Origin: Promethearchaeota archaeon
GTDB taxonomy: Archaea > Asgardarchaeota > Thorarchaeia > Thorarchaeales > Thorarchaeaceae
Direction: 5' to 3'
Length of the DNA stretch: 64,000 nt
NCBI GenBank assembly: GCA_014728035.1
Contig: WJMJ01000108.1
Span: 1 to 64,000, forward strand
In this document: positions 1 through 10,044 of the stretch, piece after piece
Position numbering within the stretch: position 1 is the first letter of the stretch
Layout of the letters: the number at the start of each line of letters is the position of its first letter
The notes under the pieces: generated by a model
The model's database searches: none
What the model was told of the DNA's origin: nothing
Seen by the model: only the letters and a program-made list of their open reading frames with translations
Translations under genes and position numbers: made by a program

Positions 1-3
1 GAA

Positions 4-3000
4 TTGAACTCAACTGCCTATTTCATAAATGTTCGATGGGGTCAAAATGCGTCGTGGGATGTCGGATTCTTTGACCGTGATGGAAACGGAAACGAAACCT
101 ATGCGATACCTCTATCAGACATTTACTGGGTAAACTATACAGTTTACATGGGTATTACCCCAGTTGCATTTGGCACATGGAATAGTAGTGCATATGATTG
201 GGTTACAAAGACTTCATCTATCAACTTCACCATGATTGTTGATACTGATTATTGGTTGCTAAATGCGTCTGATACTCCTTATGTCATTAAGGTGTGGGCA
301 CATGCAAATCCTGCAAATTACGAAGATCCAACTGAACTGACAATATACTTAACTGTCGTAAACGCTCAGACTTCCCAGGATGACTTTGACACCTATAGTA
401 TAAATGACTACTACAAAACTCACACTGACCACACATTCTGGTTGAAAGACATTACAAATTCAGAGAATGTAACAGAGCTTTCCACCTATACATGGACCAT
501 TAAGAAAGGTACTACTTTGCTTAGAAGTGGTTCTCTATCCGAAAGTGGTGCTATCTATACCTTATCATCATCTGCCCTCTATGGTTTGAGTGTTGGTTCC
601 TATACACTTACGATTGTCTTGAATAAAGAGAATTACAATGGACAGACGATAACTATCGATTTGGTTATTGATGAAGTACCAATGGATGTAGTTCTTACTG
701 GACCATCTAATTATGAATGGTCTCCAGTTGCAGATTCGTTCACTTTTGAGTACGAAATATACAATGGAACTGATCCTGGTCTAACAGGAATATCAGTGAC
801 TGTATATTGGATTAACAATGTTACTGGACAAGTTTACCTAACCCAGACAGCAACGCTGTCACAGACTGGTGGGGTGTACGAATATGCATTCAATAGAAAC
901 CTTCTTCCAGTTGGCAGTTGGCATATCAATGTCACCTGCAAAAAAGCAAATTATGAGTTTGCGTGGATGACAGATAATTACTTTGTAGTTTCGGTAGCTA
1001 ACACAGACCTCAATGCAGAACCACTAGGAAGTGGCAATGTAATTGTTGACTGGGGTGAATCTCTCTATTTCGACCTTGTATACAACAGAACTGATGGTAC
1101 TGGATTAGCTGGTGCAAGTTACTCTCATAACTGGAATAAGACTGTAACAGTAGAATATCTTGGAAGCGGCACTTACCGATTTCAAGTAAATACTCTTGTT
1201 GAATCTGGTGATTATACCTTGGAGGTAACAATGTCCTTGGCTAATCATGAGTCAGCAGATATTCTATTGAACATAACAGTTCGAATTCCATTATTCATAG
1301 AGACTGAATACGGATCAGCTGAGAGCCCTCTCCAAGCTTACTGGACACACACTTTTGATATCGAGATTATCCTTCTTGACCAGTCTCGTGAGAATGAACC
1401 AGTTGATGGTGCAACTGTAGCATACAACTGGTACATGGAATTTGTTGTTGACCAATCAGGTACTCTTAATCCGGGAGGAAATGGAATTTACAACATAACT
1501 CTCAATGCATTTGATGCAGTTCCAATGGATGATGATCTTTATGCCATCACCATAACTGCAACAAAGGCTGATTCTACAACTGCGATAACAACTATCTTTG
1601 TCAGAATCAATTCTGTACCTAACGAGATCGTACTAGATAGTCAGTACTTCGAGCAGTTTTATGCTGATATTTTCGACGTGACCTTCTATTGGAACAATAC
1701 TCTTGATGGTAGTCCAATCGATAACCCCGACAATCAGCTCTATGAACTCTTGAGTAGTTCCACTGAGATTACCGATTTATCTAATCTGGGTGGTGGCTGG
1801 TACAGTTTCACTGTTGACACAAAGGCTCTGAACATGAATGCTAATGAGCAAGGATCAGTCTATGTTATTCAAATCACATTGGAGAAATCTGGATATTCAG
1901 ACCATGTACTAACAACAGTAATTGTGTTGGTTCAGGAAACTGATGCATCTTTAGTAATTGATCCAATTGGACATGTGAACTGGACTGATGACTTCACAAT
2001 CACAGCATCTCTATATGATGACCTTCATGGCGGATTGATTTGGCTGAATGCAGAAGTCACTATTACTTGGGGTACCTATGCTTGGGATATGACCAATAAT
2101 GGAGATGGAACTTTTGAGCAACAGCTTACCTCTGATGAATGGTTTGCAGCATCTTTGAGTCCATACAACTTGACTTTCACATATACTCTACCAAACTATG
2201 TCGATAGTTTCAACATGACCTCGTTATACATCGATCCTATTGAAGGTGAATGTATCAAGGTGTCACCGAGTCAAGACTCACCGACCTACAAGTGGTCTGA
2301 AACATTTAATCTACAAGTTGAGGTGAATCGGGTCTATCTTGTAACAGAAGCTCTTGAGGATGTTTACGTCTATTACATCTGGAGTGGGTATACAACTCAA
2401 TATCCATTGACTTTCTTACCTAGTCCAAATGACTATGCTGTTACAGTAGACACCTCACAAGTACCTGCTGGGGTCTATAATCTAATTGTTAGAGTGGAGA
2501 ATGAAAACTACACAATCTCGGACCTTGTGATACCTGTCACAATAGCAACTGTGGACACTTCACTTACACCAAACGAAAATGTTTACACTGCAACTTACGG
2601 TGTTACAGGTATTGATGTGATTCTAGAGTTTGAGGTAGACGATCTTCAAGTTTCCTTGTCTGGTGCCTTGTCGGGTGCAAGCATTACAATGATGTATGCA
2701 GGTGAGCCATTCACCGCAACCTACAGGCCTGCAAGTGGAACTTACCTTATGAACTTCAACCCCTCTCTGATGTCACTGGATTATATTCCTGGTGTGTTCA
2801 CCCTGAATATCACAGCAGTGCTACAGAATTATACCTCAATTACTATACATCCAACCTTGGAAATCTATGCTGACACTGCCTTGGTCGGACAAGATAGAGT
2901 TGTTGAAGATGGAACCAGTTTCTTATTGGTTTGGGAGTTCAGAGACACATCATCAGATGTACCAATGACTCCAACTGTAACTGGACTGACCATGACTCTC

Positions 3001-4023
3001 ACAACACCGCAGACGAGCTTCAATCTGGATGCTTTTACGTTTAATGGAACTCATTACTCCATTCGACTAACAACATCTCAGATTGGAATAATCCGGTCTG
3101 CACCATATGAGCTAAGTATCACTGCATCTGCTCCGATGTATCAGAATCAGACCTCTACTGTTCGGGTCACAGTATCTGAACCAACTATTGACATTCTTGG
3201 TACTGGATTCAGAATACCTGTGTCTACCCTTCAGACTATCTTAATTATGACTGGTCTGTTTGTAGTCGTTGGTATTGCAGTGGTTGCTGTTCAGAGATGG
3301 AGAGTTCCATTCCACATAAAACAGATTAACGGAGCAATCAGCGATATTGAGAACGGAAAAACCGCCAGTGTAGAAGGTATATCTACCATGGGCATGGTTG
3401 TATCTGACATTCTCGCTCCTGGTCTAGCTGACTTGGACATCACTGCTCCAGTAATCGACGAATTCATTGAGGAGCCTTACGAGGATCTCCTTACTGATGA
3501 GACCGATGACCTTCTTGGCGAACTCGATGCTCTTGATGACATCAGCACTGAAGGTACTGACTTTGTAGACACTGGACCCTCTATTGAGGATGAATTGACT
3601 GCTGAGTTAGAAGCAATAACTGTCGATGAGGTTGATGCAGATACAGAAGAGATGGTATCTGACGAATCTGATATTTCAGAGGAAGCCGAGTCTGAAGATG
3701 TAGATGCTGAAGTTATTGAAGAGGAACCGGTCGAAGACATAGTCGAGTCTGATTCTTCTGAAGAAGCTTCAACTGAAGCAGAAGACATGGATGCAGAGTT
3801 AGCTGAAGACGAGCCTACTGAAGGCACAGTGGAATCTGAACCTGAATCTGTTGATGAAGATGCAGAAGAAACTGTTGTAGAGGAAGAACTAGTCGAAGAG
3901 GAAGTGTCCAGCGATACTGAGGAATCAGAAGCTGATGATACAACCTCTGAAGATGATGAATCTTCTAGTGAAGACGATGACTCCGAATCGGAGGATTCTG
4001 AAGAGGACGAATCAGAAGAATAA
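4..4023 (+). CDS. Giant membrane-anchored cell-surface glycoprotein (Ig-like beta repeats, C-terminal TM, very acidic cytoplasmic tail); probably 5'-truncated by the window edge
   Basis: Frame is open from base 1. Thr/Tyr-rich beta-strand repeats ending in motifs such as G.Y.(L/I).(I/V)...K..Y. Many N-x-S/T sequons. Hydrophobic helix ILIMTGLFVVVGIAVVAV followed by QRWR, then about 190 aa of Asp/Glu/Ser-rich tail. Confidence 0.8.
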   Translation: MNSTAYFINVRWGQNASWDVGFFDRDGNGNETYAIPLSDIYWVNYTVYMGITPVAFGTWNSSAYDWVTKTSSINFTMIVDTDYWLLNASDTPYVIKVWAHANPANYEDPTELTIYLTVVNAQTSQDDFDTYSINDYYKTHTDHTFWLKDITNSENVTELSTYTWTIKKGTTLLRSGSLSESGAIYTLSSSALYGLSVGSYTLTIVLNKENYNGQTITIDLVIDEVPMDVVLTGPSNYEWSPVADSFTFEYEIYNGTDPGLTGISVTVYWINNVTGQVYLTQTATLSQTGGVYEYAFNRNLLPVGSWHINVTCKKANYEFAWMTDNYFVVSVANTDLNAEPLGSGNVIVDWGESLYFDLVYNRTDGTGLAGASYSHNWNKTVTVEYLGSGTYRFQVNTLVESGDYTLEVTMSLANHESADILLNITVRIPLFIETEYGSAESPLQAYWTHTFDIEIILLDQSRENEPVDGATVAYNWYMEFVVDQSGTLNPGGNGIYNITLNAFDAVPMDDDLYAITITATKADSTTAITTIFVRINSVPNEIVLDSQYFEQFYADIFDVTFYWNNTLDGSPIDNPDNQLYELLSSSTEITDLSNLGGGWYSFTVDTKALNMNANEQGSVYVIQITLEKSGYSDHVLTTVIVLVQETDASLVIDPIGHVNWTDDFTITASLYDDLHGGLIWLNAEVTITWGTYAWDMTNNGDGTFEQQLTSDEWFAASLSPYNLTFTYTLPNYVDSFNMTSLYIDPIEGECIKVSPSQDSPTYKWSETFNLQVEVNRVYLVTEALEDVYVYYIWSGYTTQYPLTFLPSPNDYAVTVDTSQVPAGVYNLIVRVENENYTISDLVIPVTIATVDTSLTPNENVYTATYGVTGIDVILEFEVDDLQVSLSGALSGASITMMYAGEPFTATYRPASGTYLMNFNPSLMSLDYIPGVFTLNITAVLQNYTSITIHPTLEIYADTALVGQDRVVEDGTSFLLVWEFRDTSSDVPMTPTVTGLTMTLTTPQTSFNLDAFTFNGTHYSIRLTTSQIGIIRSAPYELSITASAPMYQNQTSTVRVTVSEPTIDILGTGFRIPVSTLQTILIMTGLFVVVGIAVVAVQRWRVPFHIKQINGAISDIENGKTASVEGISTMGMVVSDILAPGLADLDITAPVIDEFIEEPYEDLLTDETDDLLGELDALDDISTEGTDFVDTGPSIEDELTAELEAITVDEVDADTEEMVSDESDISEEAESEDVDAEVIEEEPVEDIVESDSSEEASTEAEDMDAELAEDEPTEGTVESEPESVDEDAEETVVEEELVEEEVSSDTEESEADDTTSEDDESSSEDDDSESEDSEEDESEE

Positions 4024-4025
4024 AC

Positions 4026-4066
4026 AAGGAATGGTGTGAATGGGTCTGATCCCATTCCCCATTCTT
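4026..4066 (+). terminator. Stem-loop just after the stop of the surface-protein gene
   Basis: GGAATGG..GAATGGG-tctgat-CCCATTC.CCATTCTT. Confidence 0.5.
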
Positions 4067-4253
4067 CTACTATATTGAAAATGAGATTATTAGGATTACA
4101 ATATGGTGATACAGCGATGGTTGAATATAAAGAAATCAAAGACAAACAACATACCCTAAAATTCCAATACCGAGTAGTTCAACTTGGGACCTATATTCCT
4201 ACACCGTCTTGTGTGTCATCAAAAAAGAAAATGGGTGCCGGAGTGACGTTTAG

Positions 4254-5135
4254 ATGATTCGTGAGATTCATATATTTAAAGATGGAGAAACACTCTTTGA
4301 AGATATAATTATTCCAAATGATGACCTTGATTCAAATGCGGTTATGATGCTGGTTTCGTCATCAGCAAAAAAACTCCAGGAATGGAAGATAGATAATCTG
4401 GAGATTGAACGTTACAGGTACATGTATTTGAATAGCCACGACACCCAGTTCATTGTTACTATGGACCGTCAGGCATCAACTCGAAAGGTCCACGAGGCTC
4501 TTATGGGTCTTGTTTCAAAATTCATGGAAGATTATGAAGATTTGCTAGAAAGTGGTGCGTGGAAGTCTACAGACTTCTCATCTTTTGGTACCCACTTTAG
4601 AAAAATTGTTGGCAGAATTCCTGTCAAAGTTTGTCTTGCTGGACATGGTGGTACGGGTAAGACTACTTTGCTTGAACTTGCTACCCTCCCATCACAGGGA
4701 CCCCCTCAGGATTACGTTCCTACATTCTTTGGAGATAAAGCTTTGTTACGGGGGAATTTTGACCCTTATGTGTTCAGTATGTTCGATTTAGGTGGTCAGG
4801 ATCGTTTTGTTCAGGAATGGGGGAAAATTATTCGTTCTGGAAGTATGGTCGTAATAGTTAGTGATTCGACTAAGGACAATATCGCATGGACAAAACGGGT
4901 TGCTTATCCTGTTCTTAAAGCAGAACTCCCATATGCACGAATCATAGCTGTTGCAAACAAACAAGATTTGAAGGGAGCACTTTCACCTGAAGAAGTTACG
5001 AAACGCCTTGGAGTACCTGCTTATGGAATGCAGGCAAATCGTCGGGATTTTAGAGAGCGTTGGTTGGAACTTCTCAGAATGCTAGCATTTGAAGAGATTG
5101 ATTTTAACTTAGTGGGAGATATTGAGGTGGATTAA
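4254..5135 (+). CDS. Longin-domain-fused Arf/Ras-like small GTPase
   Basis: G1 GHGGTGKT, switch I PTFFG, G3 DLGGQ, G4 NKQD. The N-terminal ~120 aa has a longin-type beta-beta-alpha-beta-beta-beta-alpha-alpha pattern ending DFSSFGTHF. Confidence 0.85.
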   Translation: MIREIHIFKDGETLFEDIIIPNDDLDSNAVMMLVSSSAKKLQEWKIDNLEIERYRYMYLNSHDTQFIVTMDRQASTRKVHEALMGLVSKFMEDYEDLLESGAWKSTDFSSFGTHFRKIVGRIPVKVCLAGHGGTGKTTLLELATLPSQGPPQDYVPTFFGDKALLRGNFDPYVFSMFDLGGQDRFVQEWGKIIRSGSMVVIVSDSTKDNIAWTKRVAYPVLKAELPYARIIAVANKQDLKGALSPEEVTKRLGVPAYGMQANRRDFRERWLELLRMLAFEEIDFNLVGDIEVD

Positions 5136-5696
5136 ATGGTCGATATGAGTGACATTACAAAGAGCGTCATTAGCGAAGAAGAACGTACTCGTTTAATGAA
5201 TGAAATTGACCGTATCAAAAAACAACTTGACAGTTTCAAATATGGTTTGGAGTTCGAAAAATTCGCTGAAGAGATATTCAAAACCATTAATCGACAAACA
5301 GTAGCCATCAAAAAACTTCAAGAAACGATGGATACTATTACTACCCGACTCGAATCTCTTGAGAAGAGGTTCAATGAAGGAATTAAGGTTCATGTTGCAG
5401 GAATGGACGAATCGGAAATTGGTGAGTCTCAGATTATACTTGAAGACTCTTCTGATAATGAGTCCACAACTGAAACTGATACATCAGCGGCAGAATCGAA
5501 AGAAGAACTTGAGAAAATTGCAGCTGAAATTAGACTAAAAATTGCAAGACTATTTGAGAAGGAATCCGAGTTTGAAGAGATGGCCATGACTGATCCTGCT
5601 AGTGCTGAAGAGTACTACGAAAAAGCAGAGGTCGCGGGTCAAATGCGAGAGAAGTTGGAAAGCCGGCTCAAAGAAGTAGAAGGACTTATGAAATAG
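5136..5696 (+). CDS. Coiled-coil protein with a C-terminal helical hairpin (hypothetical)
   Basis: ATG directly abuts the GTPase TAA. Two heptad-rich segments are separated by an acidic Ser/Thr linker. Confidence 0.75.
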   Translation: MVDMSDITKSVISEEERTRLMNEIDRIKKQLDSFKYGLEFEKFAEEIFKTINRQTVAIKKLQETMDTITTRLESLEKRFNEGIKVHVAGMDESEIGESQIILEDSSDNESTTETDTSAAESKEELEKIAAEIRLKIARLFEKESEFEEMAMTDPASAEEYYEKAEVAGQMREKLESRLKEVEGLMK

Positions 5697-5708
5697 AGGT
5701 GGAGATCC

Positions 5709-6077
5709 ATGGGATTATTTGATCGATGGAGACGAAAAGAAAAGAAAAAGACAAAGACCGTTGTTAAAGGTCGCGAAATAATGAGAGTTGAGGCTCCAGA
5801 ACGTAAGCCTAAGACTGAAGAAGTTGAGAAGACTCCTGAATCTAAGGAGAAGATTGCAAAACTAATTGCTGAATATCAGCGTTTAGTTGAGAGGCGTGAA
5901 GAGCTTCAAAGAGAACGAAGTGAACTTACCCGTCGTCTAGATAGCGGAGAGTTAACAGCAATCCAATTCAGAAAAGAACTGATGAATCGGATTCAGGAAG
6001 CCGCCAGAATTACTGACGGCATACGTGAAACATCTACAGCACTCATTGAATTGGGACATCCTGGAGTAGCAGTATGA
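5709..6077 (+). CDS. Small coiled-coil protein with a basic amphipathic N-terminus and a C-terminal hairpin (LDSGELTAIQFRKEL)
   Basis: GAGGTGGAG RBS upstream; N-terminus MGLFDRWRRKEKKK; heptad repeats. Confidence 0.75.
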   Translation: MGLFDRWRRKEKKKTKTVVKGREIMRVEAPERKPKTEEVEKTPESKEKIAKLIAEYQRLVERREELQRERSELTRRLDSGELTAIQFRKELMNRIQEAARITDGIRETSTALIELGHPGVAV

Positions 6078-6088
6078 GGTGCTGTTAA

Positions 6089-7555
6089 TTGCCTGAAGAA
6101 AATGGGGATTCCGATTTAGGAGAAGTTCCTGATTTAGAAGCCGAAACCAAACGTCTTATGGAAGCAGCTATGGCGAGGAGTCTCGGTGACTCGAAAGAGG
6201 AGAGCCCTTTTCCTGAATCTGCAGAAATAGATGTTCCTGAAGAAGAGGCCACTCTAAAAGAGGATATATCTCCCAGTCCTTCAACTCGGGAAGAAGAAGC
6301 ATCAGTAATTGATGAAACCTTTCAACGAATTGAATTTCGAGTTGTTGATTTATTTGCATCTATTGAAGACAGTGTCAAAGCTACTGGACCCTATGTTCAA
6401 GAGCAAGCTGATGCAATAATGCAATCCCTGAAAAAGAAATTCCAAGCTATGGGCCTTGGAGTATTTGCAACAAAGGCAATAAAAACAGTCAAAGACGAAC
6501 TGGATTCTGGGCTGGACCCGGAGCAGTTACACTCACCAATATATACTGCTATCCATGAGAGTCAAGAAGCTGCAAAAGATATTTTGGAGAAAGCTTCTCG
6601 AGGGGCAATTAGAAATGTAGGCCGGTCAACAAGCTCACTTCAAGGTAAAATAATACAAATGTATTCTCGACTTAATGAGGTTGATATTCAGCTTGAGCAA
6701 GAACGAGTTTCAGCACGACGATGGCGAGCGAAAGCTAGAGAAATGGAAGAACGCCTTCGAATGAAAGATGAAACTATTGTAGAACTTGAACAAGATATGG
6801 AACGTCTTCGTGAGCTCTACAGTGATATGTCTTCACAACTTGATGAACGGGGCCAAGAAATCTCAGTTCTGAAAGGGTCGTTACGAGAGGCAGAAACCGA
6901 ATTGAAACAGCAAAAAGAACTGATCAGTTCTCTTGAAGATGCTAAAGATTTGACAGATGATTATGAGGCAAAAATGAAAGAGGTGGCAAGCCTTTCCGGT
7001 ACAATATCTGAGCTTGAGGATCGCATTGCACAAAAAGATGAAACCATTGAATCTTATCAGCAACAGATTGTAGGTTTGAATGAGAAGATTGGCGAGCTCG
7101 AGTGGAAGATTATTTCCATGAGCGATGAGCTTTCTACCAAACGTGGTCTGGACGATTCTCACGAAGCTGAGATAATAGCTCTCAATGAGCAAATTGAAGA
7201 GCTTAAAGCACGATGGGATATGCTTTATCAAGTGTCAGAGGACGAACCAGCATTCAAAGCCTATTTCCTCATTGCTGACAAGGAGTACTCTTGGCTACCA
7301 TTACAACATATCTCTCAGGCATTAGGAGTTCCTACAGTCCTTTTGAGACGTAACCTCCAAAAATTCGTTGATATTGGCCTAGTTGAGATTGAAGATGATA
7401 AGATTCGTCCGAAAAGCATCAAAGAGGTTATCAAAACAGAACCTCTGGGAGATGAAGAATCCTCTCTTGAAGATACTGAATCTGATGAAAACCCTGAACA
7501 ACTTGATGCATCTGAAGACTCCGATGAAGAGTTAGAAGATCCAAAACCCGAATGA
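6089..7555 (+). CDS. Long coiled-coil protein with a C-terminal winged-helix domain
   Basis: GAGGTG RBS and TTG start. Acidic disordered ends, ~190 aa coiled coil, wHTH-like LQHISQALGVPTVLLRRNLQKFVDIGLVEIED. Confidence 0.75.
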   Translation: MPEENGDSDLGEVPDLEAETKRLMEAAMARSLGDSKEESPFPESAEIDVPEEEATLKEDISPSPSTREEEASVIDETFQRIEFRVVDLFASIEDSVKATGPYVQEQADAIMQSLKKKFQAMGLGVFATKAIKTVKDELDSGLDPEQLHSPIYTAIHESQEAAKDILEKASRGAIRNVGRSTSSLQGKIIQMYSRLNEVDIQLEQERVSARRWRAKAREMEERLRMKDETIVELEQDMERLRELYSDMSSQLDERGQEISVLKGSLREAETELKQQKELISSLEDAKDLTDDYEAKMKEVASLSGTISELEDRIAQKDETIESYQQQIVGLNEKIGELEWKIISMSDELSTKRGLDDSHEAEIIALNEQIEELKARWDMLYQVSEDEPAFKAYFLIADKEYSWLPLQHISQALGVPTVLLRRNLQKFVDIGLVEIEDDKIRPKSIKEVIKTEPLGDEESSLEDTESDENPEQLDASEDSDEELEDPKPE

Positions 7556-7567
7556 GGAACGTATACT

Positions 7568-7909
7568 ATGACTCGCTCAATGTCAGAAGTAATGAGATTT
7601 CTAGAGAACTATACCTTAGCTTGGCATCATTGGTTGCTTATCCTTTCTCTTTTGAAGCTTAAAGGATCTGGATCTAAGGGACAAATCTTTCCTGTTTTTA
7701 AGAAGGAAGGATTCTCACCTCACGCAATCGAAGGGATATTCAAACGAGATCTAATTGAACTTGGTGAAGCTATAGAGGTTGAAGGTGATATTGATGAAAT
7801 CAAAGACTCCACCATGATTTATCTATCCGAAGATCCAAAATTCAGGAAGTTCATTAAGAAGCATTTGAAATCAGTAGTACGCACTCTCAAGACAAGGACT
7901 CCCACATGA
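7568..7909 (+). CDS. Small winged-helix-like protein
   Basis: GAGGA RBS. Helix-helix-helix-wing pattern (IFKRDLIELGEAIEVEG...IYL). Last gene of the operon. Confidence 0.65.
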   Translation: MTRSMSEVMRFLENYTLAWHHWLLILSLLKLKGSGSKGQIFPVFKKEGFSPHAIEGIFKRDLIELGEAIEVEGDIDEIKDSTMIYLSEDPKFRKFIKKHLKSVVRTLKTRTPT

Positions 7910-7958: not shown

Positions 7959-8294
7959 ATGAGTGGGGATTTCATGAAAGAATCAGCTTCCCGTTGTTCC
8001 GAATGTGACAGAACGGTTTATCCTCCTCGAGCATTCTGTCCCTATTGTGGCCCTGCTATTGATGCGGTTTATGAGGTTGAATTGGGTTCTGAAGGTGTTA
8101 TTCTTAGCTACACTGTTTCCCAAATGCCTCCCGACGGTTTTGAACCCCCTCTTGTTCTTTCGCTGGTAGAAACCTCTAGTGGTGCATCTATCCTTTGTCA
8201 TGGTGAGGAAAGTGTAATTGATTCTCTTGAAATAGGGCTCTCTGTTCGTATCCATAAGGGTGAAGATGGACTATTTCATTTCACTCTAAAATAA
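7959..8294 (+). CDS. Zn-ribbon/OB-fold protein (DUF35 family)
   Basis: CSEC..YPPRAFCPYC rubredoxin-like ribbon followed by the G.ILSYT OB fold. Confidence 0.85.
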   Translation: MSGDFMKESASRCSECDRTVYPPRAFCPYCGPAIDAVYEVELGSEGVILSYTVSQMPPDGFEPPLVLSLVETSSGASILCHGEESVIDSLEIGLSVRIHKGEDGLFHFTLK

Positions 8295-8370
8295 GATGGT
8301 GTTGGGAGTGCCCATATTTTGATGGACACACCCTTTGCACAATTCAACTAGGGACCGAAGTTAATCTCCA

Positions 8371-8408
8371 GTATCACGTAATAGTATTACATAATACAAA
8401 TATTAACT
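8371..8408 (+). promoter_or_regulatory. 27-bp imperfect palindrome (candidate operator) abutting a TATA-like box upstream of the RHH gene
   Basis: GTATcAcGTAATA-G-TATTACaTaATAC (8371-8397) followed by AAATATTAAC. Confidence 0.5.
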
Positions 8409-8469
8409 CTTTGGTTGCATACATAAACCTTAGATGTGTATTATTGTAAGAGAGTATGAGCTGATTTTC

Positions 8470-8814
8470 ATGGCTGAAGAAGAGCAAGTTACGGACTCAG
8501 AAAGTTCGGGAATAACTTGGATGGAGGAACTAAGGTCTCGTTTCTCATCAGATGGGTTTGGATTGAGAAAACGAGAGATATCTGTGATGACCCGAATGAG
8601 TTCTGACATAGTGGAGATTCTGGATGCACTAGTAGAGCTCGAGATATTCAAGAGTCGGTCTGAAGCTGTGGCAGCATTTGTTGAAAAGGCAATAGCTGGG
8701 CGCAGACAACTTTTTGAAGAGATTCGAAATCAAGCAGAAGAGATTGTATTGAAACGAGAGGCTGCGAAGAAGCTAGCTTTCGAAGCAATGCGAGAAGATA
8801 TGAAAGAGTCTTGA
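8470..8814 (+). CDS. Ribbon-helix-helix (CopG/MetJ-like) transcription regulator
   Basis: SVMTRMSSDIVEILDALVELEIFKSRSEAVAAFVEKAI matches the RHH pattern. Likely start is MAEEE at 8470 (the ORF track starts at 8434). Confidence 0.75.
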   Translation: MAEEEQVTDSESSGITWMEELRSRFSSDGFGLRKREISVMTRMSSDIVEILDALVELEIFKSRSEAVAAFVEKAIAGRRQLFEEIRNQAEEIVLKREAAKKLAFEAMREDMKES

Positions 8815-8874
8815 ATTTTCACACTCAGTTACTAATTTAAGGGTTCTATTCAGTGAACAAGACTGGTTATCAGC

Positions 8875-10044
8875 ATGACAGACTATCTAAATACTGCTCT
8901 ATGGACTGAGGATGAAATCAAGTTTCGTGAAGAAGTACGTGAATTCTGCGAACGAGAAATTGGTCCAATAGCGGACGAGATTGATCACGGCCCTTATCCG
9001 AAGGATATTTTGAAGAAGATTGGTGCTGCTGGATACATGGGTGTACTCCATGAAGAATCAGTTGGTGGTTCTCATAGAGGTCTCTCCTATGAGATCATTG
9101 TAGCTGAAGAGATTAGTGCAGTTAATGGGGGCCTCGACATGGCCAGAATGGCTTCCACTACTCTTTATGGGATGCCAGTCAGCAAGTTTGGGACTCAAGA
9201 ACAGAAAATCAAGTACCTCAAACCAATCGTTGAAGGCGAGAAGATTGGATGTATTGGGATTACTGAACCTGATGTTGGTTCTGATACTGCGGGAATGAAG
9301 ACGCTAGCTGAAAAAGATGGTGACGAATGGGTAATAAATGGTGAAAAACGATTTATCACCAATGGCAGTCAAGCTGACTATATGGTCTGTTTTGCAATTA
9401 CCGACCCGTCTGTCAATTCCAAGAAAGGAATGTCTGCCTTCATTGTTGACACCAAAACAGATGGATTCAGTGTTGTCAAAGATCACGACCTACTTGGAAT
9501 GAAATCAGCTCGTGTGTCTTGGCTGAAGATGGAAGATTGTCGTATTGGTTCTGATATGCTCCTTGGTGAACCAGGTGATGGATTCAGAATTCTTATGGAT
9601 GAATTGGATAGCGAACGGACTGCAATTGCTGGAGAAGCAATCGGATACGGCCGAACTCCTTTTGAGGTTTCTGTGAAACATGCCAATGAGCGAGAACAAT
9701 TTGGTCGTCCTATCAAGATGTTCGAAGGAGTCAGTTTCAAAATATCCAATATGGCGATGAAGCTTGAAGCAGGAAGAGCACTGACGCTTGCAGCTGCACG
9801 AAAATATGACAAAGGTGAACCAATCACTCGTGAAGCCTCTATTGCAAAATTATATGCCACCGAAGCAGCAATTGAAATTACCAATGATGCTCTTCAAATC
9901 CTTGGTGGTTCTGGATATACTACTGATTATCCTGTTGAGCGATTCCTACGAGATGCACGACTAATGACTATTGGTGGAGGAACTGCTGAAATTCTACGGT
10001 TCCTTATCCAACGAGAAGTCTTTAGACAATTCTATCCAAAATAG
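8875..10044 (+). CDS. Acyl-CoA dehydrogenase
   Basis: ITEPDVGSD, NGEKRFITNG, REQFGRPI, QILGGSGY, RDARLMTIGGGTAEI. Confidence 0.95.
   Translation: MTDYLNTALWTEDEIKFREEVREFCEREIGPIADEIDHGPYPKDILKKIGAAGYMGVLHEESVGGSHRGLSYEIIVAEEISAVNGGLDMARMASTTLYGMPVSKFGTQEQKIKYLKPIVEGEKIGCIGITEPDVGSDTAGMKTLAEKDGDEWVINGEKRFITNGSQADYMVCFAITDPSVNSKKGMSAFIVDTKTDGFSVVKDHDLLGMKSARVSWLKMEDCRIGSDMLLGEPGDGFRILMDELDSERTAIAGEAIGYGRTPFEVSVKHANEREQFGRPIKMFEGVSFKISNMAMKLEAGRALTLAAARKYDKGEPITREASIAKLYATEAAIEITNDALQILGGSGYTTDYPVERFLRDARLMTIGGGTAEILRFLIQREVFRQFYPK

Follow-up and report, generated by a model that had tools for sequence, protein, structure and literature searches.

Our analysis concerns a gene cluster in a 64,000-nucleotide stretch of DNA (hereafter the window) from a Promethearchaeota archaeon of the Thorarchaeaceae (contig WJMJ01000108.1, positions 1 to 64,000). 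Five open reading frames (ORFs), all on the + strand and tightly packed, occupy 4254-7909 and encode a longin domain fused to an Arf-like GTPase, three helical proteins (cc186, cc122 and cc488) and a small winged-helix protein (wh113). By comparing Asgard genomes we find that these genes close a seven-gene order, LWH390, giant, longin-Arf-like GTPase, cc186, cc122, cc488 and wh113, in which the giant gene encodes a surface protein of about 2350 amino acids (aa). A reading made from the sequence alone had taken the five genes for a ubiquitin-independent, GTPase-gated scaffold akin to ESCRT-I and ESCRT-II (ESCRT, endosomal sorting complex required for transport), possibly serving the surface protein encoded upstream; our data support the link to the surface protein and give no support to the ESCRT kinship.

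Organization of the operon

The features of the operon are as follows.

4254-5135, + strand: ORF 1, 293 aa, longin domain (residues 1-123) fused to an Arf-like GTPase (residues ~120-281)
5136-5696, + strand: ORF 2, cc186, 186 aa
5709-6077, + strand: ORF 3, cc122, 122 aa
6089-7555, + strand: ORF 4, cc488, 488 aa, TTG start
7568-7909, + strand: ORF 5, wh113, 113 aa
7896-7913, + strand: hairpin of 6 bp spanning the wh113 stop codon, with T-rich sequence directly 3' of it

The gaps from the first ORF to the fifth measure 0, 12, 11 and 12 nt, and a ribosome-binding motif (GGAG, GAGGTG or GAGGA) lies 6-12 nt 5' of every one of the five starts, in agreement with the earlier description of co-oriented genes with 0-12 bp gaps and GAGG-type ribosome-binding sites. 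No such Shine-Dalgarno motif precedes the next three genes (starts 7959, 8434 and 8875); because of this, and of the hairpin over the wh113 stop codon with its T-rich sequence, the transcription unit most likely ends at 7909. On the upstream side the giant ORF ends at 4023, 230 nt before the start of the GTPase gene at 4254, so that the operon does follow the giant gene on the same strand, as had been described, but is not directly adjacent to it. A 73-aa ORF at 4036-4257 was considered as a gene and rejected, showing no conservation even within the genus.

Conservation of gene order and content

Another 12 genomes of the family share the order GTPase-cc186-cc122-cc488-wh113, at identities of 49-89% for wh113, 42-89% for the small coiled coils and 34-77% for cc488, the maxima belonging to a same-genus genome; the GTPase itself is 73-96% identical across Thorarchaeota. 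A co-oriented giant gene is found upstream in all 13 full-version thorarchaeal loci, where it ends 8-350 nt upstream, and the gap between the giant and GTPase genes is as small as 8-16 nt in some relatives. Two genomes (G134 and G108) have a short version, GTPase-cc122-wh113, in which the giant gene, cc186 and cc488 are absent together and LWH390 stands directly before the GTPase gene; across the loci compared, cc186, cc488 and the giant protein occur as a set or not at all. The co-orientation in 13 of 13 loci and this joint loss bear out the proposed link between the operon and the surface protein.

Among 61 genomes of the family, wh113 occurs in 38, cc122 in 38 and both in 33, and wherever both occur they lie on the same contig within 2 kb (33/33 genomes). 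At least 33 genomes conserve the order and content, far more than chance would give, and the neighbourhood comparison across Asgard metagenome-assembled genomes (MAGs), which the sequence-only reading had recommended, establishes the five genes as a conserved operon. Neither wh113 nor cc122 is found in 18 of the 61 genomes, 10 of which are at least 90% complete, and the genomes without these two genes are also without a GTPase orthologue. Because the module is not found in about 30% of the family, including those 10 genomes, it is an accessory one, as one would expect of a surface-protein device more than of machinery at the core of membrane remodelling.

A core version of the module is present in Atabeyarchaeia: the loci of Ca. 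Atabeyarchaeum deiterrae and of a MAG related to it at the family level hold, in this order, a giant gene, LWH374, the GTPase (38-39% identity), a cc122-like gene (E 1e-6 to 1e-8) and a gene for a coiled-coil protein with a winged helix-turn-helix (wHTH). At these Atabeyarchaeia-family loci a gene for a Rab-like GTPase of 181-183 aa adjoins (L036:7101-7649(-) and L037:4301-4843(+)), and in L037 a second longin-GTPase (338 aa) is next in line. Other variants were also observed. The LWH390 and giant pair of genome G075 (L049, C1:1222000-1241000) is tandemly duplicated (401+2199 aa, then 409+2370 aa) before a single GTPase operon. A third arrangement is seen in G112, a genome of the sister family (L035:7958-9487), where a 510-aa gene lies between the cc488 and wh113 homologues; the N-terminus of its product is weakly LWH-like (E 0.002), placing an LWH-type protein inside the operon.

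The longin-Arf-like GTPase

The product of gene 1 matches Pfam Arf with E 1.8e-12 and 47.5 bits (cut-off 22.3), its match to Pfam Longin being weak (E 0.13). An AlphaFold2 (AF2) model built from an alignment of 18 orthologues has a predicted local distance difference test score (pLDDT) of 89.5. Its residues 1-123 match the longin domain of VAMP7 (4afi_B, Z 16.1, root-mean-square deviation 2.1 over 116 aa; 2vx8, Z 15.0), and the DSSP order of secondary structure in the model, E2-9, E12-18, H27-40, E46-51, E54-61, E64-71 and H76-100, is the beta-beta-alpha-beta-beta-beta-alpha(-alpha) arrangement by which we define a longin fold. Residues 120-281 match Arf6 with Z 17.8 in a fold search, and Foldseek places the Asgard GerdArfR1 best, followed by Arf1, Arl1 and MglA; MglA and MglB structures and the SR-beta chain 2fh5_B (Z 15.7, GTPase domain) are also among the structural matches. 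The motifs G1 GHGGTGKTT, switch-I PT157, G3 DLGGQ182 with its catalytic Gln, and G4 NKQD are invariant in 18 of 18 orthologues, as is R72 of the longin domain in their alignment. By the evidence of the model, gene 1 encodes a true longin domain with a complete Arf-like GTPase; the assignment made from the sequence alone thus holds in the Pfam Arf match, the modelled folds and the invariant G motifs. The N-terminal amphipathic helix of Arf proper, which GTP binding releases, is absent from the model, in which the 123-residue longin domain occupies the N-terminus.

The giant surface protein and LWH390

The window opens within the giant gene, whose features are listed here.

1..4023, + strand: C-terminal 1340 aa of the ~2350-aa giant surface protein, ORF open at its 5' end
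3235..3291, + strand: single transmembrane (TM) helix, 19 uncharged hydrophobic residues (1079-1097 of the open ORF)
3292..3465, + strand: juxtamembrane cytoplasmic motif, RWRVPFHIKQI...LLAPGLADLD, a candidate docking site, near-identical in 13 thorarchaeal giants
3466..4020, + strand: polyacidic cytoplasmic tail; the whole 243-aa segment after the TM helix has a net charge of about -95 and an isoelectric point (pI) of 4.05

The N-terminal 986 aa, with a signal peptide-like N-terminus, are encoded at the end of contig C38 of the same genome (L048:8002-10959). On a 2359-aa same-genus orthologue the C38 part covers residues 1-987 and the window part residues 1017-2344; the assembly is therefore broken inside the giant gene, the end of C38 joining the start of C77 with about 29 residues missing between them. 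The complete protein has the architecture of a type-I surface protein, with a signal peptide, Ig-like repeats of the CarboxypepD_reg/SdrD_B type, one TM helix and an acidic tail. The equivalent TM helix is present in 12 of 12 other thorarchaeal giant loci, and a juxtamembrane consensus of about 55 aa, RWR-x-P-F/Y-x-IKQI ... LLAPGLA-x-LD, is found in 13 of 13 thorarchaeal giants, the tails otherwise diverging in sequence and ranging in net charge from -43 to -111. The motif remains recognisable in the giants of the Atabeyarchaeia family (IPFVIKKID and TPYIIKQIN). Some giant orthologues have a domain of the helix-hairpin-helix (HhH) class in the cytoplasmic tail, among them the one from G027 (HHH_5, 5.6e-12; L052:11193-18398, residues 2228-2280); it is absent from the tail of the window's own giant protein. 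The giant orthologues with a tail HhH domain share LSKKEL..L near the C-terminus.

LWH390 is the gene before the giant one (2340-2400 aa), its stop codon touching or overlapping the giant's start, in four long contigs and likewise in the genome of the window, where it lies at the end of C38. LWH390 is a protein of about 390 aa with an N-terminal WD-x3-GP motif and two winged helices of ArsR/TrmB type, the second of which matches HTH_20 (8.9e-8), TrmB (4.4e-9) and HlyU structures (7e-5); source annotations call it hypothetical or an ArsR-family regulator. The thorarchaeal motif, W10-D11-x3-G15-P16, has the same spacing as W33-D34/G38-P39 in C9orf72, a longin protein of the GTPase-activating protein (GAP) type (PMC12290439), a sequence likeness that we treat as a lead only. 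PDB searches with LWH390 and with its N-terminus gave only coiled-coil noise or ArsR-type winged-helix matches, Pfam matched nothing in the LWH390 N-termini, and hhalign of LWH390 against the GTPase indicated no relation (probability <2%, from shallow alignments).

The other products of the operon

For cc186, cc122, cc488 and wh113 no Pfam or NCBIfam family scored above cut-off. The acidic, helical cc186 consists of a conserved N-terminal block, an acidic linker and conserved C-terminal helices (alignment A3); it has no family match in hmmscan and no PDB match in a profile search, and it is seen solely at loci that carry the giant gene. In cc122 a conserved hydrophobic-polybasic N-terminus, MGLFDRWRRK (consensus MG(L/I)FD-W-RRK), leads through a basic linker to a helical hairpin at the C-terminus, which carries a SHOCT-like D-x-GE(L/I) motif (alignment A1), the hairpin covering residues 38-117 in a protein-atlas model. 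The family is tiny, with 41 representatives at E<=1e-3 among 1.8 billion proteins, and its distant members keep the hydrophobic-basic N-terminus, where a hydrophobic-moment signal is clearer in three distant homologues. A search for N-myristoyltransferase (PF01233) gave no match, the control set being equally silent.

The largest product, cc488, has an acidic N-terminus, a helical domain with an invariant GLGVF, a coiled coil of about 190 aa and an acidic tail (alignment A5). Towards its C-terminus lies one further feature.

about 7229-7420, + strand: putative C-terminal winged helix of cc488, a conserved region with weak HTH matches (Rrf2 0.048, TrmB 0.07)

The earlier assignment of a coiled coil with a wHTH stands for the coiled coil, which gives SMC/Rad50-type matches (compositional and far below cut-off), and stays putative for the wHTH, given its weak matches. 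The C-terminus of cc488 also aligns with the 239-aa coiled-coil and wHTH protein of Atabeyarchaeum (E 2e-10).

The wHTH assigned to the 113-aa product is confirmed by an AF2 model (pLDDT 89.7), which shows one winged helix and a basic C-terminal helix. Its nearest folds are generic, with Z from 6.4 to 8.4: the ORC1/Cdc6 winged helix (Z 8.4), the forkhead protein FOXN1, ArsR, MarR and JetB. Zero Pfam families matched at E<=1 in 16 members, and the relatives of wh113 fall into 233 clusters, all labelled 'hypothetical' and none with a Pfam domain, nearly all of the named ones being assigned to Thorarchaeota. Both winged-helix cores are acidic (wh113 residues 1-88, pI 5.3; cc488 residues 381-445, pI 5.7). 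By hhalign, wh113 shows no relation to LWH390 or to cc488 (probabilities <2%, again from shallow alignments). Profile and sequence searches of the PDB with cc122, wh113 and cc186 returned coiled-coil noise or ArsR-type winged-helix matches only, and protein-atlas look-ups with an atlas fold search returned only generic wHTH or hairpin neighbours.

Searches for ESCRT kinship

The sequence-only reading had likened hairpins in the two small proteins to Vps28-N and Vps23/37, a resemblance that no search reproduced. Among the hmmscan matches listed at E<=1 for the five products there is none to Vps28, Vps23_core, Mod_r, EAP30 or ESCRT-II, and the ESCRT-I families are not among the 25 most-matched families of 16 cc122 members. 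Six-frame searches of the whole genome with PF03997, PF09454 and PF07200 (Vps28, Vps23_core and Mod_r) had no match in the window, and PDB profile searches gave generic coiled-coil noise only. Whereas wh113 is one winged helix, ESCRT-II subunits contain a tandem pair; ESCRT-II chains are absent from the 50 best fold matches of wh113, an absence that is not proof of difference. The same genome has its own, easily detected ESCRT locus on contig C44 (L047, G000:C44:168000-182000), with Snf7, Vps4 (MIT+AAA+Vps4_C), Vps25 (3.9e-13) and EAP30 (6.9e-14), to which the operon is unlinked, although Asgard ESCRT clusters join such genes; the earlier remark that the window holds no ESCRT-III or Vps4 gene agrees with this location. 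The EAP30 protein on C44 has a weak Vps28 match at its N-terminus (E 0.003). With no family match, a single winged helix and the true ESCRT genes on C44, we reject the ESCRT-I/II kinship of the operon as unsupported. The earlier statement that Thorarchaeota lack recognisable ESCRT-I is inexact as well, in that Hatano et al. 2022 (PMC9192718) report Thorarchaeota to be without ubiquitin and tested thorarchaeal ESCRT-I proteins.

A paralogous trio, all on the - strand, is present on contig C37 (L046, G000:C37:127000-143000), with a fourth gene divergent from it.

L046 7791-8897, - strand: LWH368, 368 aa, of the paralogous trio
L046 6952-7794, - strand: longin-GTPase, 280 aa, of the paralogous trio
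L046 6018-6662, - strand: cc214, a 214-aa coiled coil, paralogue of cc122
L046 9028-11373, + strand: 781-aa coiled-coil protein, divergent from the trio, with CarboxypepD_reg and a sub-threshold match to EAP30 (tandem winged helix; 7.2e-4)

The cc214 protein has a sub-threshold match to the CdvA coiled coil (6.3e-4), and the CdvA hairpin is related to the steadiness box (Makarova et al. 2024, PMC10936438). Searching the genome with the CdvA model returns this C37 paralogue as its best match (E 0.005) and none in the window, and the model gives matches at that level in 10 of 14 control genomes.

Neighbouring genes

Downstream of the operon, 7959-10044 holds genes for a Zn-ribbon and oligonucleotide-binding-fold (OB) protein of ChsH2/DUF35 type (111 aa), a weakly matched ribbon-helix-helix protein (126 aa) and an acyl-CoA dehydrogenase (389 aa, ORF 8875-10044). 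The three keep the same order across Thorarchaeota, and because they have no Shine-Dalgarno motifs they are probably leaderless, separate units.

Discussion

Our study describes a set of genes that accompany a longin-Arf-like GTPase in Asgard archaea. We propose that a giant type-I surface protein is the centre of a seven-gene Asgard module of restricted lineage distribution, and that the five genes supply its partners in the cytoplasm, which would form a GTP-switched scaffold beneath the membrane, a proposal to which we give an even chance. It builds on what is observed at these loci, namely gene content, order and co-occurrence, the two folds and the conserved motifs; every contact of the proteins with one another or with the membrane, and the direction of signalling, is what we infer from them. 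In the best-supported reading of the module the core comprises LWH390, the GTPase, cc122 and wh113, with cc186 and cc488 as an accessory pair that accompanies the giant protein. The GTPase would act as the GTP/GDP switch, and its longin domain may pair with the N-terminal domain of LWH390 in the manner of the longin pairs in eukaryotic GAP and guanine-nucleotide exchange factor complexes. The switch could be held at the membrane by cc122 through its hydrophobic-polybasic N-terminus, which would stand in for the canonical Arf amphipathic helix, whose place the longin domain takes. As cc186 and cc488 occur only where the giant protein occurs, we assign them a role tied to it, as an extended acidic coiled-coil scaffold that, together with the cc488 and wh113 winged helices, would tie the surface protein's conserved inner tail to the GTPase core. 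A giant, adhesin-like protein may in this way be anchored, clustered or made to signal in a manner that depends on GTP.

Several observations weigh against this proposal. A hydrophobic-moment shuffle test finds no significant amphipathicity at the N-terminus of thorarchaeal cc122 sequences (shuffle fraction 0.07-0.54), and the N-terminus of LWH390 is not recognised as a longin by sequence in Pfam, PDB or hhalign searches. Its GP reads GT (P16 to T) at the Atabeyarchaeia-family loci, as it does in another Asgard family (L040). The 230-nt gap may mean that the giant and GTPase genes are transcribed separately in the window. All of the winged helices resemble families of DNA-binding regulators at least as much as protein scaffolds, and some giant tails have an HhH domain.

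These last likenesses are the substance of the main rival explanation, a fairly unlikely one in our estimate, in which the module signals from the surface to DNA or tethers DNA, with the giant protein as sensor, the longin-GTPase as switch and LWH390, cc488 and wh113 as DNA-binding outputs or tethers. The HTH_20, TrmB and HlyU matches of the second LWH390 winged helix and its annotation as an ArsR-family regulator would fit such a role, as would the ORC1/Cdc6, forkhead, ArsR and MarR folds nearest to wh113, the G027 tail domain and the SMC/Rad50-type matches of cc488; the sequence-only reading had itself named a likeness to ordinary DNA-binding regulators as a sign against ESCRT, and that likeness is in part what we find. 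The logic would also be analogous to that of the actinobacterial conservon, in which a small GTPase is joined by a sensor in the membrane, a roadblock protein and an HTH-like one. The acidic winged-helix cores speak against DNA binding, however, as do the lack of a Pfam HTH match in all 16 wh113 members, the tail of the window's own giant protein, which is without an HhH domain, and the compositional nature of the cc488 matches. That the five genes are an autonomous small-GTPase module, next to the giant gene through a shared variable genomic island and not a shared function, seems to us quite improbable: the 230-nt gap, the variant loci that do without a giant gene and the equally syntenic flanking metabolic genes, which have no obvious functional link, would be expected of such an island, but loss of the giant gene goes hand in hand with that of cc186 and cc488, the gap shrinks to 8-16 nt in some genomes, and the linkage recurs in the Atabeyarchaeia-family loci along with the conserved tail motif.

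Strict linkage with a very large signal-peptide protein would also suit a dedicated biogenesis or targeting device, in which a longin/Arf-like pair with helpers serves the insertion, export or quality control of the giant protein. Eukaryotes pair a longin fold (SRX of SR-alpha) with the Arf-like SR-beta, and the structural comparison of the GTPase domain also returns SR-beta (2fh5_B). It is one of many equally scoring small GTPases there, the best being Arf6, Arf1 and ArfR; the GTPase, cc122, wh113 and LWH390 persist at loci without a giant gene, and hmmscan finds no signal recognition particle, Sec or chaperone domains in the module, so that we hold this device to be very unlikely. Least probable of all, in our view barely credible, is the ESCRT-I/II-like scaffold, with cc186 and cc122 hairpins on a cc488 stalk and ESCRT-II-like winged helices. 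It draws on an analogy of architecture (helical hairpins, a long coiled coil, winged helices) and on the C37 locus, where the cc122 paralogue has its CdvA match and the 781-aa neighbour its EAP30 match, both sub-threshold. Against it stand the negative family and PDB profile searches, genome-wide Vps28, Vps23_core, Mod_r and CdvA searches that miss the window (the CdvA model matching in most control genomes), the single winged helix of wh113, the ESCRT-II, ESCRT-III and Vps4 genes on another contig, and the finding of no module in about 30% of the family's genomes, 10 of them at least 90% complete, which would be odd for core membrane-remodelling machinery.

The proposed sub-membrane scaffold can be extended, with low probability in our judgement, to a prokaryotic forerunner of the recognition of cargo tails by longin adaptors and Arf GTPases, in which the tail motif would be read by a longin/winged-helix adaptor and the GTPase, held at the membrane in trans by cc122, would switch the assembly of a coiled-coil lattice beneath the giant protein. 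If true, archaea without known endomembranes would possess a device for organising patches of membrane or for sorting.

Comparison with known systems

Small GTPases and longin-type modules work together in several established systems. The eukaryotic longin GAP complexes (GATOR1 NPRL2-NPRL3, FLCN-FNIP and C9orf72-SMCR8-WDR41; PMC12290439) may share with the module, by analogy, the logic of an Arf/Rag-like GTPase combined with two longin-type modules; the WD-x3-GP spacing of LWH390 is that of C9orf72, and both systems stand beside a membrane protein. In those complexes a heterodimer of two longin domains faces the GTPase, with a GP motif ahead of the second strand (joined by WD in C9orf72) and a catalytic arginine finger. 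Unlike them, the module has one longin fused to the GTPase itself, its LWH390 has winged helices in place of DENN or NPRL C-terminal domains and a longin that is a candidate only, and no arginine finger was identified and no sequence homology detected. With the system of Arf1, adaptors (AP and COPI, with sigma and mu-N longins) and cargo tails the module shares a set of parts, here encoded side by side: the Arf-like GTPase, modules of longin fold, and a membrane protein whose cytoplasmic tail has a conserved motif. The module differs in having no adaptin trunk, appendage, mu-homology or coat domains, in a GTPase without an amphipathic helix, and in host organisms in which no vesicles are known. 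With ESCRT-I and ESCRT-II it shares the vocabulary of building blocks alone (hairpins, a coiled-coil stalk, winged helices), and it differs from them in showing no family-level similarity, in the single winged helix of wh113, in the unlinked ESCRT locus and in its patchy distribution.

The bacterial MglA-MglB system joins a Ras-like GTPase to a roadblock/longin-type regulator, and the conservon operon (CvnA-D) adds membrane and HTH-like proteins to the same prokaryotic theme of a small GTPase with its regulator. Unlike in these systems, the fold here is longin and not roadblock, the GTPase is Arf-like and not MglA-like, and there is no histidine-kinase-type sensor; no product matched Robl_LC7 or DUF742 in hmmscan.

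Of the eukaryote-like small GTPases and longin proteins that Asgard genomes encode by the dozen, hardly any has a known partner or function, and Tran et al. 2024 (PMC10933270) found that the GTPase genes of MK-D1 are generally not in operons with regulators. The fusion of a longin domain to an Arf-like GTPase ('ArfL' or Rag-like) is already published, since 2016 (Klinger et al. 2016, summarised in PMC4917890; Liu et al., bioRxiv 10.1101/2020.10.19.343400; Tran et al. 2024, PMC10933270; Zhu et al. 2025, PMC11914678). Our literature searches found the fusion protein and no description of the partner set, in keeping with the earlier view of the operon as a candidate undescribed module. The attractive but unsupported ESCRT-I/II reading is hereby corrected, and a 'eukaryotic signature protein' becomes directly testable. 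Gene 1 has the same architecture as the published fusions, an N-terminal longin followed by a G domain with its catalytic Gln; whereas those papers cover the fusion proteins with no partner operon, here one such GTPase has fixed neighbours, a conserved partner set, and with them a proposed physical address at the inner tail of a giant surface protein.

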